DNA of 64,000 nt from positions 659 through 64,658 of the forward strand of contig CACIBQ010000001.1 in NCBI GenBank assembly GCA_902584915.1, given 5' to 3'. The translations under genes were made by a program, and so were the position numbers. Position 1 is the stretch's first letter; every line of letters starts with the position of its first letter. Below are positions 39,017-42,712 of the stretch, one piece after another. This DNA is from an uncultured Pelagibacteraceae bacterium (GTDB taxonomy: Bacteria > Pseudomonadota > Alphaproteobacteria > Pelagibacterales > Pelagibacteraceae). Below the pieces are notes generated by a model. That model was not told the DNA's origin, did no database searches, and saw only the letters and a list, made by a program, of their open reading frames with translations.

Positions 39017-39507
39017 AAAATTTTAATTTTTGTATGTTTATTAATTAAGTTTAGCATCACAAAAAAATCTTTCTTTTTTAAAGCTATACAGCCAGCAGTT
39101 GGTTTATAATTTTTCGTTAAATGTAGAAAGATAGCGCTACCTTTATTCTTAATTGGTTTATTAAAGTTATAACTTATTGGAAGTATAAAATCATAATTAT
39201 GGTTTATTCTGTGTAATTTTTCATAAGAATATTGAGTGTTTTTAGTAATTCTAACCAAACGATTATAGTAATTTGAATTGGAATCATTGCACCAACCCAT
39301 ATTTTTTTTAATAACTTTTGATTTTAACTTAGATTTAAAGTTATTTATTCTGTCCGACCTGTAATATAATTGTCCTATTCTGAACAATCCTTTTGGAGTT
39401 ATATTGTCTCCTTCTTTATGTTTCTTTTTAATTCCACCTTTTCCTACAGAGCATTTTAGTTTAAATTGATCTATATAAATTGTATTTTTTTTTAACTTAA
39501 TTATCAT
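39013..39507 (-). CDS. L,D-transpeptidase-like (YkuD) family protein
   Basis: EGDNITPKG, GWCND, GSAIFLH, PTAGCIAL. Confidence 0.9.
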   Translation of the reverse strand: MIIKLKKNTIYIDQFKLKCSVGKGGIKKKHKEGDNITPKGLFRIGQLYYRSDRINNFKSKLKSKVIKKNMGWCNDSNSNYYNRLVRITKNTQYSYEKLHRINHNYDFILPISYNFNKPIKNKGSAIFLHLTKNYKPTAGCIALKKKDFFVMLNLINKHTKIKIF

Positions 39508-39513
39508 ATTATT

Positions 39514-40080
39514 ATGAGTAAACTTAATGTTGCAATATTTAAATTACCTGCATTATACGAAATATTAATGGAGATTAAATCAGAATTAGATTTAAATTTA
39601 TTTAATTTTACAGAAAATAATGAGAATTTTAGAAATTTTATCTCAAAAAATCCATATGCATTAATTATTTCATCTGAAAAAAATAAAAATTTTAAAAATT
39701 TTATACATTATAATAAAATTTTAAAACTTAAAAACCTATTACATCAAATCAATATTTTTTGGTTAAAAAATAATTATGGAATTAAATCAAATATTACTGT
39801 TGGAAAATATAAAATAGATACAAACTCAAGACTTATTTCCAAGGAAAGTATATTTTTAAAATTAACAGAAAGGGAGATTAATTTGTTGATTTATCTCAAA
39901 AACTCAAAAGAAGAAAGAACAAGTTTAGATTTACAAAAGAATGTTTGGAAACATTCCAACGATCTAGAGACACACACAGTTGAAACACATATCTATCGTT
40001 TAAGGAAAAAAATTTTTGATAGTTTTGGTGATAATGAATTTATTATAAACAATAAATCAGGATATAAGATATTTGAATGA
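39514..40080 (+). CDS. OmpR-type winged-helix regulator, CenR-like, with degenerate receiver domain
   Basis: LTEREINLL..VW..ETHTVETHIYRLRKKI..GY; N-terminal half lacks the DD..D..K receiver residues. Confidence 0.8.
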   Translation: MSKLNVAIFKLPALYEILMEIKSELDLNLFNFTENNENFRNFISKNPYALIISSEKNKNFKNFIHYNKILKLKNLLHQINIFWLKNNYGIKSNITVGKYKIDTNSRLISKESIFLKLTEREINLLIYLKNSKEERTSLDLQKNVWKHSNDLETHTVETHIYRLRKKIFDSFGDNEFIINNKSGYKIFE

Positions 40081-40184
40081 AAAAAAGAAATTTCATAGCT
40101 AAAGATCTTTTTTCAAAAAAATTTAGACCAAAGAAAGTAAAACCTAAAAAAGGAAAGGGGAGTTTTAAGAGAAGAAAAAAATAG
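40077..40184 (+). CDS. arfA: ArfA-like alternative ribosome rescue factor, 35 aa (not in ORF track)
   Basis: MKKRNFIAKDLFSKKFRPKKVKPKKGKGSFKRRKK*; KKGKGS(F/Y)xR signature; ATGA overlap with upstream stop; fills the gap to the next gene. Confidence 0.78.
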   Translation: MKKRNFIAKDLFSKKFRPKKVKPKKGKGSFKRRKK

Positions 40185-40186
40185 AA

Positions 40187-41116
40187 CTATAGTCTAGCAC
40201 CTATTTGCTGAATAACTTTAGATGACATTTCTGTTCCCTTTTCTAAACTTTTTCTAATTGATAAATTATTTATATATCCATGCAAAAATCCAGCAGCAAA
40301 AAGATCTCCAGCGCCAGTTAAGTCAATAATTTTGAGATTTTTTTGAACACCACATTCGACAACCTCATCTCCTTTTATTGCTATGGCTCCATTTTTTCCT
40401 CTAGTAAGAACTATGAGTTTATTAATTTTTTTAGAAAAATTTACTACCTCTTCAAAGTTTTTAGCATCAATCAATGATGTAATTTCTTGTTCATTAGCAA
40501 ATGTAATATCTAATTTATTTTTTACTAAATCTAAAAAATGAGATTTATGTCGATCAACACAAAATTGATCCGATAATGACATTGCTACCTTGTTTGCATT
40601 ATTAATTGCTTTATCAAATGCTTTCTTTGGCTCACCCTCATCCCAAAGATATCCTTCGAGAAATATTATTTCACTTTTTTTAATTGCATCTGAACTAACA
40701 TCCTCCTCATTAATTTTTCCTGCAGTACCCAAAAATGTGCACATAGTTCGCTCTGAGTCTGGTGTAACTAAAATTAAACAAGTTCCTGTTGGTAACTCCT
40801 CGTTTTTTTTAGAATAAAAATATTCTACATTTTCTTTTTTTAACCCCTCTTCGTATTTATTTCCAAGATCATCATCAGATACTTTACCTATAAATCCTAC
40901 TTTATTACCTAGTTGAGATATACCCACGATAGAATTTGCTACTGATCCACCAGAAACAGTTTTTTCTATTTTAAGACTAGTTAATAATTTTTTAAATTCA
41001 TTTTCATCAAAAATTAATTTCATGGTGCTTTTTGTTAAACCATTTTGAGTAATAAAATTGTCATCAACTTTGCAGATAACATCAACAATTGCATTTCCAA
41101 TTCCTAAAATTTTCAT
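40187..41116 (-). CDS. PfkB family carbohydrate kinase (adenosine kinase-like)
   Basis: GIGNAIVDV, SGGSVANS, ERTMCTFLG, FANEQE, DLTGAGDLFAAGF. Confidence 0.93.
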   Translation of the reverse strand: MKILGIGNAIVDVICKVDDNFITQNGLTKSTMKLIFDENEFKKLLTSLKIEKTVSGGSVANSIVGISQLGNKVGFIGKVSDDDLGNKYEEGLKKENVEYFYSKKNEELPTGTCLILVTPDSERTMCTFLGTAGKINEEDVSSDAIKKSEIIFLEGYLWDEGEPKKAFDKAINNANKVAMSLSDQFCVDRHKSHFLDLVKNKLDITFANEQEITSLIDAKNFEEVVNFSKKINKLIVLTRGKNGAIAIKGDEVVECGVQKNLKIIDLTGAGDLFAAGFLHGYINNLSIRKSLEKGTEMSSKVIQQIGARL

Positions 41117-41118
41117 AA

Positions 41119-41772
41119 TTAAGCTTTCTTTGTTTTAATTGGTGATTTTCTTTTAGGATAACAAGTAGTACAAATTTTACAAGTTAAACCATAACATTCT
41201 CTAGCTTTACAATATTCTCTTCCATAATAAATAATTTGAAGGTGAAGTTTATTCCAAAACTTTTTGGGAAATAATTTTTTTAAATCCTTCTCAGTTTGGA
41301 CAACATTTTTGCCATTAGTTAAGCCCCATCTTTGTGCTAGTCGATGAATATGTGTATCCACAGGAAATGCTGGATGACCAAATCCTTGAGCCATAACTAC
41401 ACTTGCGGTTTTATGACCCACACCTGGTAACTTTTCAAGTTTCTCAAAATTATTAGGAACTTTTCCACCATGTTTTTTAATTATTTGTTTTGATAATAAA
41501 TAAACACTTTTTGCTTTAACTCTGAATATTCCAATACTTTTGATAAGATTTTCAATTTTTTTTCTTCCTAATTTTACAAAATGTTCTGGTTTATTGTATT
41601 TTGGATAAATATTTTTTGTTACATTATTTACATTAACATCTGTAGTTTGGGCAGATAACAAAACAGAAATTAATAGAGTGAATTTATTTTTATGTTTTAA
41701 TGGAATTGTTGTTTTTGGGTAAATTTTATTAAGAATTTTTAGTATTATTTTAGATCTTTGAACTTCATTCAT
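41119..41772 (-). CDS. nth: Endonuclease III
   Basis: LLSAQTTD, LPGVGHKTA, FPVDTHIHRL, C-terminal Cys cluster. Confidence 0.95.
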   Translation of the reverse strand: MNEVQRSKIILKILNKIYPKTTIPLKHKNKFTLLISVLLSAQTTDVNVNNVTKNIYPKYNKPEHFVKLGRKKIENLIKSIGIFRVKAKSVYLLSKQIIKKHGGKVPNNFEKLEKLPGVGHKTASVVMAQGFGHPAFPVDTHIHRLAQRWGLTNGKNVVQTEKDLKKLFPKKFWNKLHLQIIYYGREYCKARECYGLTCKICTTCYPKRKSPIKTKKA

Positions 41773-42545
41773 TTGAAATTCAAAACATCTCTCATTGAAT
41801 AAAGTCCTGGTTTTTTATTCATTAACCATTTAGCTGCTGCGAATGCTCCTTCCGAATAAAGAGCTCTATCAAATGCTTCATGATTTAATGTAATTATTTC
41901 TTTACCACTTGAGAAAGTTACCTCATGTTCACCTATAACTTCACCTTTTCTTAAAGAATTAAAATTAATTTTTTTTCCATATGGAAAAGATTTTTTGTTT
42001 AAATATTTTTTTCCTATTAATTTATAAAAGTCTTTGTTCTTTCCAATGGCTACACCTTTTCCAAGCATTAAAGCAGTACCTGAGGGATGATCTTTTTTGT
42101 GTTTATGATGAATTTCAAAGACTTTACTTAAGAAATTATTTCCAAGAGATCTTGATGCTATTTCTGTTAAATACATCAGTAAATTTATTCCTAAACTCAT
42201 GTTACCAGCCCTAAGTATTGGTATTTTTCTTGAATATTTTTTTATTAAGTTTTCTTCTTTTTTAGAAAAGCCAGTTGTTCCAATAACTACCCTTTTTTTA
42301 AGTTTTGATGCAATTTTTAAAACTTCAAAAGTGCATTTTGGAACTGTAAAATCTATTATTAAATTTACTTTTTTAAAAGCTTCTACAGTATTTAAGCTAG
42401 GTTTAATTCCATGAATTTTTTTATTTATTTTTCTATTTTCAGTAAGAGTTACTATTTTAAAATTTTTATCAGATTTGGCTGATTTAATAATCTGTTGCCC
42501 CATCCTTCCCATACATCCAGTAATAGCTAAATTAATTTTTTTCAT
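41769..42545 (-). CDS. dapB: 4-hydroxy-tetrahydrodipicolinate reductase
   Basis: GCMGRMG, IDFT, IGTTG, EIHHKHKKDHPSGTA, GEH. Confidence 0.97.
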   Translation of the reverse strand: MKKINLAITGCMGRMGQQIIKSAKSDKNFKIVTLTENRKINKKIHGIKPSLNTVEAFKKVNLIIDFTVPKCTFEVLKIASKLKKRVVIGTTGFSKKEENLIKKYSRKIPILRAGNMSLGINLLMYLTEIASRSLGNNFLSKVFEIHHKHKKDHPSGTALMLGKGVAIGKNKDFYKLIGKKYLNKKSFPYGKKINFNSLRKGEVIGEHEVTFSSGKEIITLNHEAFDRALYSEGAFAAAKWLMNKKPGLYSMRDVLNFK

Positions 42546-42712
42546 TTAAAGATAAGATATGAAACTATCATAACAGCTAAAACAATTATAGCCCAAATGG
42601 ATAAATTTGTTAAAAACTGCTTTAATTTTGAATTAGATCTAAGAAATGCAGGAAGAATTAATATCAAAACTGCAATTAAAGAAATTGTTGGAACGATCTC
42701 TTCTAGTCCCAT
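42542..42712 (-). CDS. Small two-TM membrane protein, 56 aa (not in ORF track)
   Basis: MGLEEIVPTISLIAVLILILPAFLRSNSKLKQFLTNLSIWAIIVLAVMIVSYLIFK*; starts 3 nt after the dnaJ stop; its TGA overlaps the dapB ATG. Confidence 0.8.
   Translation of the reverse strand: MGLEEIVPTISLIAVLILILPAFLRSNSKLKQFLTNLSIWAIIVLAVMIVSYLIFK

Follow-up and report, generated by a model that had tools for sequence, protein, structure and literature searches.

A short ArfA homolog encoded on SAR11 chromosomes without the tmRNA feedback design of Escherichia coli arfA

Does a 35-codon open reading frame lying between a regulator gene and a convergent kinase gene of a SAR11 bacterium encode a ribosome-rescue factor of the ArfA family, and can such a factor be controlled in the way that E. 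coli ArfA is controlled? The ORF is located in a window (the whole stretch of DNA analysed) of 64,000 nucleotides from an uncultured member of the Pelagibacteraceae, whose genome is 61% complete with 28% GC. A sequence-only reading of the window had proposed a hidden, minimal ArfA-like factor with no regulatory tail. ArfA has been described in a review as restricted to some beta- and gamma-proteobacteria (PMC8012679), and a 2024 survey of 15,259 genomes using nucleotide HMMs recorded arfA in 0 of 2,376 Alphaproteobacteria (PMC11633108). The features of the locus are as follows.

39514-40080, + strand: OmpR/PhoB-type winged-helix regulator gene (PF00486, from Pfam), the probable co-transcribed leader gene.
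40077-40080, + strand: ATGA start/stop overlap with the regulator gene, a candidate site of translational coupling.
40077-40184, + strand: arfA-like gene of 35 residues, equivalent to E. coli ArfA residues 10-44, with TAG at 40182-40184; assigned from translation, profile match and purifying selection.
40089-40109, + strand: Asn5-Leu11 (E. coli 14-20), with invariant Asn and Leu and a predicted short helix over residues 6-11; Lys9 corresponds to Ala18 and Asp10 to Leu19.
40122-40139, + strand: residues 16-21 (E. coli 25-30), carrying the aromatic/basic/V-I pattern of the strand that adds to the RF2 domain II beta-sheet, a putative RF2-binding segment (alignment; PMC8012679, PMC5378476).
40140-40181, + strand: basic C-terminal segment with KKGKGS and invariant Arg32 (E. 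coli 31-44), a putative mRNA-channel plug.
40187-41116, - strand: convergent gene for a pfkB-family carbohydrate kinase, which directly abuts the regulator gene where the arfA-like gene has been lost.

The arrangement agreed with the sequence-only reading: the ORF at 40077-40184 on the + strand translates exactly as given there and stops at TAG, its ATG (40077-40079) overlaps the TGA (40078-40080) of the 188-residue ORF at 39514-40080, and the convergent pfkB-family gene ends at 40187, 2 nt beyond the TAG. Neighbouring genes are yggS, a YkuD L,D-transpeptidase gene, the OmpR-type winged-helix regulator gene and the pfkB kinase gene, then nth and dapB, the last two named from sequence and gene annotation. 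Pfam returned no receiver domain in the upstream regulator (39514-40080), and a promoter scan gave no signal beyond chance (15 sites against 13 expected). Contigs from three RNA runs, of low depth and without strand information, extend over parts of the ORF. The regulator gene is divergent from the L,D-transpeptidase gene, with 6 nt between the two starts; an identification as CenR was not adopted, a published study having recorded no CenR in Pelagibacterales (PMC9275681). A 56-residue hydrophobic ORF without a convincing Pfam match lies between dnaJ and dapB (42542-42712, - strand).

Conservation of the ORF in related genomes, on which the original claim had been made to depend, was found across much of the family. 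Using a profile of 55 orthologs (E < 1e-10), a single copy was detected in 135 of 180 Pelagibacteraceae genomes, and relatives were present in 30 of the 36 genomes of the same genus, most of which are incomplete. Orthologs are 34-43 residues long and most commonly lie between the OmpR-type regulator gene and pfkB, with a different upstream gene in one genus. In 149 of 184 orthologs the start codon overlaps or directly adjoins the stop of the preceding gene, an arrangement suggestive of translational coupling to the regulator, and the convergent pfkB stop is at most 10 nt away or overlapping in 164 of the 184. Among 184 distinct cores, pN/pS was 0.16 in the ArfA frame, a descriptive value only since the sequence pairs are interdependent; the third codon position was more than twice as variable as the other two; and no core had an internal stop in this frame, while the other five frames were often or always interrupted. 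The ORF is a real protein-coding gene under purifying selection in SAR11. At seven loci (L005, L006, L018, L019, L029, L046 and L057) about 600 nt of extra sequence lies between the arfA-like gene and pfkB. Stop codons of the 184 orthologs were TAA (128), TAG (50) and TGA (6), against 354, 57 and 84 in the long ORFs of this genome; TGA, the RF2-only codon, is rare at ortholog ends and TAG is common, a bias that common descent and the overlapping end of pfkB may explain entirely.

Membership of the ArfA family was examined with single-sequence and profile searches. Alone, the peptide matched Pfam PF03889 with an E value of 2.9e-5 and 23.9 bits, 1.6 bits under the cut-off, and in the PDB it found ArfA chains alone, weakly (E 0.2-0.4). 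The ArfA profile test that had been suggested was more decisive with orthologs included: searched against 177,635 PDB sequences, the 55-ortholog profile returned only E. coli ArfA (E 5e-7, ungapped over 32 residues), with no ribosomal protein or other non-ArfA match up to E 10. PF03889 was the sole Pfam family matched by all 55 orthologs, and its cut-off was passed in 62 of 201 Pelagibacterales genomes. In the ESM Atlas the peptide falls among 35-residue clusters labelled as ArfA-domain proteins; NCBIfam gave no match and PHROGs weak unnamed matches only. The gapless alignment of residues 5-32 to E. coli 14-41 given in the sequence-only reading holds against the E. coli K-12 arfA gene (NC_000913.3) with the same 13 identities, and phenylalanine in place of Y39 and lysine at Ala18 were both seen against that gene. 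A one-residue register shift placing Ala8 on Ala18 was rejected, as it breaks the match of invariant Asn14 and Leu20.

Low complexity, together with the sub-threshold Pfam score and the weak PDB matches of the single sequence, might point to a spurious lysine-rich ORF, or to some other small basic (ribosomal) protein whose match is due to composition. This reading is effectively refuted. The best ungapped identity was 15, against a mean of 7.7 and a maximum of 13 in 20,000 composition-matched shuffles, and the ortholog profile scored real ArfA at 31.2 bits against at most 10.8 for 5,000 shuffles; since shuffles never reach the real score, a compositional artefact is excluded. The profile gave 62 bits for the ORF and 11.8 for the next best segment of its own genome, and BrfA was likewise missing from its matches to E 10. 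Selective constraint confined to the ArfA frame also speaks against a spurious ORF, and clean loss from closed genomes is unlike a core ribosomal protein. By these comparisons the 35-residue peptide is an ArfA homolog. It belongs to the ArfA sequence family and is not a canonical E. coli-type ArfA, as four defining features of that type were tested for and none was found.

The columns invariant among orthologs are, in E. coli numbering, N14, L20, K34, G35, G37, S38 and R41. Since the motif KxGKGS also served to select the ORFs, invariance of that part is partly by construction; N14, L20 and R41 played no part in the selection. A wider pattern is kept as well, with Y or F at position 25 in all orthologs, R or K at 28, and V or I at 29 and 30, and the last 14 residues of the peptide contain nine K/R, compared with eight in E. 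coli residues 31-48. AlphaFold prediction of the isolated peptide gave a helix over residues 6-11 (E. coli 15-20; mean pLDDT 78, pTM 0.30), where the E. coli helix spans 15-24.

Of the divergence from E. coli, the sequence-only reading had recognised the change of Ala18 to lysine and had overlooked the rest, namely the absence of residues 1-9 and Ile11 (position 11 is mostly Lys), the changes at Leu19 and Leu24, the loss of the KH motif and the short end. Position 18 is Lys in 81% of orthologs, position 19 is D, E or N, position 24 is K or R, and the KH motif occurs in 0 of 184. In the E. coli protein, Ala18 sits between C1914 and Ile11, the minidomain comprises Thr7, Lys8, Ile11 and a small residue at 18, and Leu19, Leu24 and Phe25 bind RF2 Trp319 and account for RF2 specificity (PMC5378476). 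Two of the three residues of this hydrophobic patch are changed in SAR11 and the aromatic residue at 25 alone is kept. An A18T ArfA binds and recruits RF2 without activating it, and A18C is active. E. coli ArfA has been reported as active down to Asn47, inactive if shorter and dead at Met40; most SAR11 orthologs reach only the position of residue 44 and so lack three residues that the shortest active E. coli fragment still has. Since residues of the activating end are missing, activation of RF2 is something that we infer only. The partner itself appears permissive: SAR11 RF2, read from five relatives (the RF1 and RF2 genes are absent from the 61%-complete assembly), has Trp319, Phe217, V/I198 and W at 221, while RF1 lacks Trp319, Phe217 and V/I198. 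The same contact residues are identical in a genome without the arfA-like gene (G064), so they are not diagnostic. Rescue systems of this kind are adapted to their own species. Complex prediction of the peptide with SAR11 RF2 gave 'no answer' (0.18) and was counted neither way.

In E. coli, a stem-loop within the arfA ORF yields a non-stop mRNA, which is removed by tmRNA, and the full-length protein has an unstable hydrophobic tail. Neither element was found in SAR11, as had been proposed. Folding of the 120 nt around the ORF end recovered the stem in the E. coli control (z -3.15) and gave z -0.29 for the query (+0.54 in a separate run), an ortholog median of +0.44 and a value under -2 in one of 136 orthologs; additionally, no terminator-like site was found within 39300-41300 and a U-run precedes the stop in one of 184 orthologs. 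Mostly three residues follow Arg41, and the longest tail in the 184 orthologs is 13 residues, leaving in most of them no room for a non-stop product that retains the channel residues. Given that tail and hairpin are absent family-wide and that the positive controls worked, the non-stop-mRNA/tmRNA feedback cannot operate here as it does in E. coli, which bears out the original proposal.

Longer ArfA-like relatives are carried by 11 of about 397 other alphaproteobacterial genomes. Three of these, from one family, retain Ala18 and KH, and ahead of their stop codon, 11-12 codons past Arg41, lies a GC-rich hairpin plus U-run; their z over the whole folded segment is only -1.3 to -1.6, a modest value because the genomes are GC-rich, and the hairpin and U-run were read from structure. 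Since the feedback design is present in these relatives and missing in SAR11, its loss in SAR11 is the simpler reading of what is an unrooted comparison. Four ArfA-like genes of other Alphaproteobacteria (L271, L275, L276 and L273), previously unreported, have Ala18 or Arg, KH and an in-frame terminator-like hairpin before the stop, and so contradict the published 0 of 2,376. Versions lacking GKG were seen at L278-L281, also in other Alphaproteobacteria.

The rescue context of the gene was determined across the order. The genome itself encodes a permuted tmRNA, SmpB and RNase III, and SmpB was detected in 191 of 201 Pelagibacterales genomes. Replacement of trans-translation by the peptide was therefore rejected. 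ArfB was found in none of the 201 genomes, with E. coli and Caulobacter controls positive, whereas arfB is recorded in 2,022 of 2,376 Alphaproteobacteria (PMC11633108); each of five near-complete genomes has just two release-factor-family genes. The arfA-like gene is the sole alternative rescue candidate in an order without ArfB. The tmRNA (G000 C3:29404-29714) is a permuted, two-piece molecule with the tag ANESYALAA, encoded beside a tRNA-Leu gene.

Absence of the gene is well defined in many genomes. In 17 of 20 near-complete genomes of the same genus without a match, the stops of the regulator gene and pfkB lie 6-45 nt apart with nothing between, and a PfkB tree requires seven changes to account for absence, at least four of them forced by well-supported branches, on a quick tree of one gene from which nine unresolved loci were left out. 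The gene is dispensable, and its repeated clean loss fits a back-up role. An essential or core ribosomal protein was rejected on account of the clean losses in closed same-genus genomes. The gene is also absent from the Uisw isolates and HTCC9565 examined, a possible reason for its not having turned up in surveys of cultured representatives. Genomes without both ArfB and the arfA-like gene appear dependent on trans-translation alone. Natural present/absent pairs exist among cultured strains, with HIMB114 and nBUS_33 as carriers.

Taken together, the peptide probably acts as a rescue factor dependent on RF2, produced in small amounts through translational coupling and outside tmRNA control. By homology, on a ribosome stalled on a truncated mRNA its basic C-terminal half would insert into the vacant mRNA channel, residues 16-21 would extend the beta-sheet of RF2 domain II by one strand, and the short helix from Asn to Leu would prop RF2 open so that the GGQ motif releases the peptide. 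The E. coli-type N-terminal loop may have been lost along with the requirement that residue 18 be small, the constraint on that position being gone because Ile11, on which Ala18 packs, is absent; lysines would replace hydrophobic contacts through rRNA binding, and the extra basic residues may make up for the shorter tail. Its amount would be set by the regulator transcript and translational coupling, not by tmRNA load, and a low standing level could work beside trans-translation as a dispensable second pathway in which ribosomes are freed and the product is left untagged. We infer that loss of Ile11 and the freed position 18 form one coherent paired change. This pairing, together with the same type of helix in phages and in relatives that keep the terminator, favours RF2-dependent rescue, and relatives in other Alphaproteobacteria that have Ala18, KH and an in-frame terminator link SAR11 to canonical ArfA. 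Against it stand the altered RF2-opening minidomain and an end three residues short of Asn47.

The altered minidomain would fit a peptide that no longer activates RF2. Such a peptide would bind the empty mRNA channel as a plug that protects or parks vacant or non-stop ribosomes, or would hold RF2 closed, as a natural counterpart of A18T that could be useful in a slow-growing oligotroph; the channel-binding half is near invariant, the activating N-terminal minidomain is the part lost or changed, and loss of feedback is more tolerable in a peptide that does not compete with tmRNA. We consider this unlikely, though worth weighing, as Asn14, Leu20, the aromatic residue at 25 and the V/I strand, all on the decoding-centre and RF2 side, are conserved like the channel motif, and the activity of A18C indicates that position 18 is not absolutely fixed. 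Moreover, dozens of phage homologs share the short N-terminus with K/R at 18, and alphaproteobacterial genes with the same N-terminus retain the non-stop terminator, as would make sense for a rescue factor. A broader proposal, about equally doubtful, is that the whole short-N-terminus subfamily of SAR11 and marine phages has changed function: it would plug the mRNA channel of idle or non-stop ribosomes and leave RF2 inactive, or use another partner, and would serve constitutive ribosome protection or compete with tmRNA in place of back-up rescue.

Two further readings keep the rescue function and appear improbable. Polar or basic residues at the RF2-specificity positions 19 and 24 could indicate that the factor uses RF1, or RF1 and RF2 like ArfT, but the aromatic residue at 25, which packs on RF2-specific beta-strand residues, is present in all orthologs, and an ArfA homolog using RF1 has not been reported in the literature examined. 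Alternatively, tmRNA or RNase III might still control the gene by another route, such as an antisense duplex with the pfkB transcript; the tight convergence (at most 10 nt or overlapping in 164 of 184), the missing terminator and the presence of RNase III would suit such control. However, the regulator-pfkB convergence (6-45 nt) also exists in genomes without the gene and so predates it, some orthologs have other neighbours, and with three residues past Arg41 in most, cleavage upstream of the stop would cost the peptide channel residues. Antisense control by pfkB as a specific feature was rejected, the convergence being older than the gene; control by any such route has a slim chance. RF2-dependent rescue remains the reading that we prefer.

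Databases and literature already hold part of this picture. The ORF had been called hidden, which is true of this sequence alone: gene callers predict it, and RefSeq and IMG already name orthologs ArfA, among them the SAR11 proteins WP_143323111.1, WP_435085960.1 and EMH80712.1 (HIMB114), of 34-40 residues. These proteins, auto-annotated as 'alternative ribosome rescue factor ArfA', are direct orthologs with names derived from profile matches, while the present sequence falls under the Pfam cut-off. Full novelty had therefore been overstated, phage ArfAs also having been published. The remark that the lineage lies beyond the published range of ArfA held up, the SAR11 carriers standing against both the review (PMC8012679) and the survey (0/2,376; PMC11633108), and in the literature searched no paper was found that describes or tests a cellular SAR11 ArfA. 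What is new here is that the gene occurs on chromosomes across the family, that tmRNA feedback has been lost, as judged beside working controls, that ArfB is absent, that the gene itself was lost repeatedly and that the end concerned with activation is altered.

Compared with E. coli ArfA (YhdL; PF03889; PDB 5MGP, 5MDV, 5U4I, 5H5U), the SAR11 peptide has ungapped homology over residues 12-44 and shares Asn14, Leu20, the aromatic residue at 25, KKGKGS, Arg41 and the lack of GGQ, with a short helix predicted, in a host that likewise keeps RF2 Trp319 and has tmRNA and SmpB. It differs in length (35 residues against 72, of which 55 are active), in lacking residues 1-9, Ile11 and KH, and in having Lys at 18, D/E/N at 19 and K at 24. 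Its gene, unlike E. coli arfA, has no RNase III stem, terminator or hydrophobic tail, appears coupled to a regulator gene and resides in a host without ArfB. B. subtilis BrfA and F. tularensis ArfT, small and basic like the SAR11 peptide, bring a release factor to non-stop ribosomes, as that peptide would. KH and an internal terminator are present in BrfA and missing from SAR11, and no sequence match to BrfA or ArfT was obtained with the profile against the PDB (including 6SZS) or in Pfam, ArfA alone being returned. The long alphaproteobacterial genes (11 of about 397) resemble SAR11 in their short N-terminus and NPxA helix start, and several differ in keeping Ala18, KH and the non-stop hairpin/U-run design.

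About three-quarters of the genomes searched in the SAR11 family carry this conserved chromosomal gene. In the ArfA and BrfA systems characterised so far, tmRNA acts as the off-switch, and a family-wide version without that switch raises the question whether such feedback is required, and what a streamlined cell pays for or gains from a rescue route that is always available and leaves products untagged. With 35 residues and without parts thought essential for RF2 opening, the peptide is also a natural minimal mutant for the structural model. The family name is already in databases and phage versions are published, which limits the newness, and the rescue role is read from sequence.

Viral relatives are numerous. 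IMG/VR holds at least 166 confirmed ArfA-like stretches, with identity up to 79% among the matches listed; SAR11 neighbour genes were found beside none of the viral homologs in 80 of the at least 166 matches, and tblastn of two query sequences gave no match in annotated phage records. Like the SAR11 peptides, the IMG/VR homologs have a short N-terminus and an NPxAK-type helix with K/R at 18, and many of them a short tail; identity is 70-79% in some. They differ in being viral and patchy, and some are part of longer fusion proteins or have a hairpin downstream. Pelagiphage HTVC027P gp30, described as an ArfA and expressed in infection (PMC12753301), and Citromicrobium phage RXM g10, also described as ArfA (PMC8953757), are likened to the SAR11 peptides by published description alone. 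On 14 viral contigs (L089, L091, L102, L106, L114, L117, L119, L123, L126, L134, L138, L143, L144 and L148) the ArfA-like segment lies inside longer phage ORFs with mutually similar C-terminal extensions of 67-106 residues, a recurrent fusion.

Among other Pelagibacterales, a basic peptide of 41-51 codons was observed in genus g6 (L234, L237, L240) and family f2 (L235, L236, L238, L239, L241, L242, L244). It has the same NPxA helix and strand without GKG, and ends in KKK-Y-N-R or lacks that too; it is possibly a second, more reduced subtype. The copy in family f2 sits behind a RecX-like gene, identified by eye, and a short-chain dehydrogenase gene.
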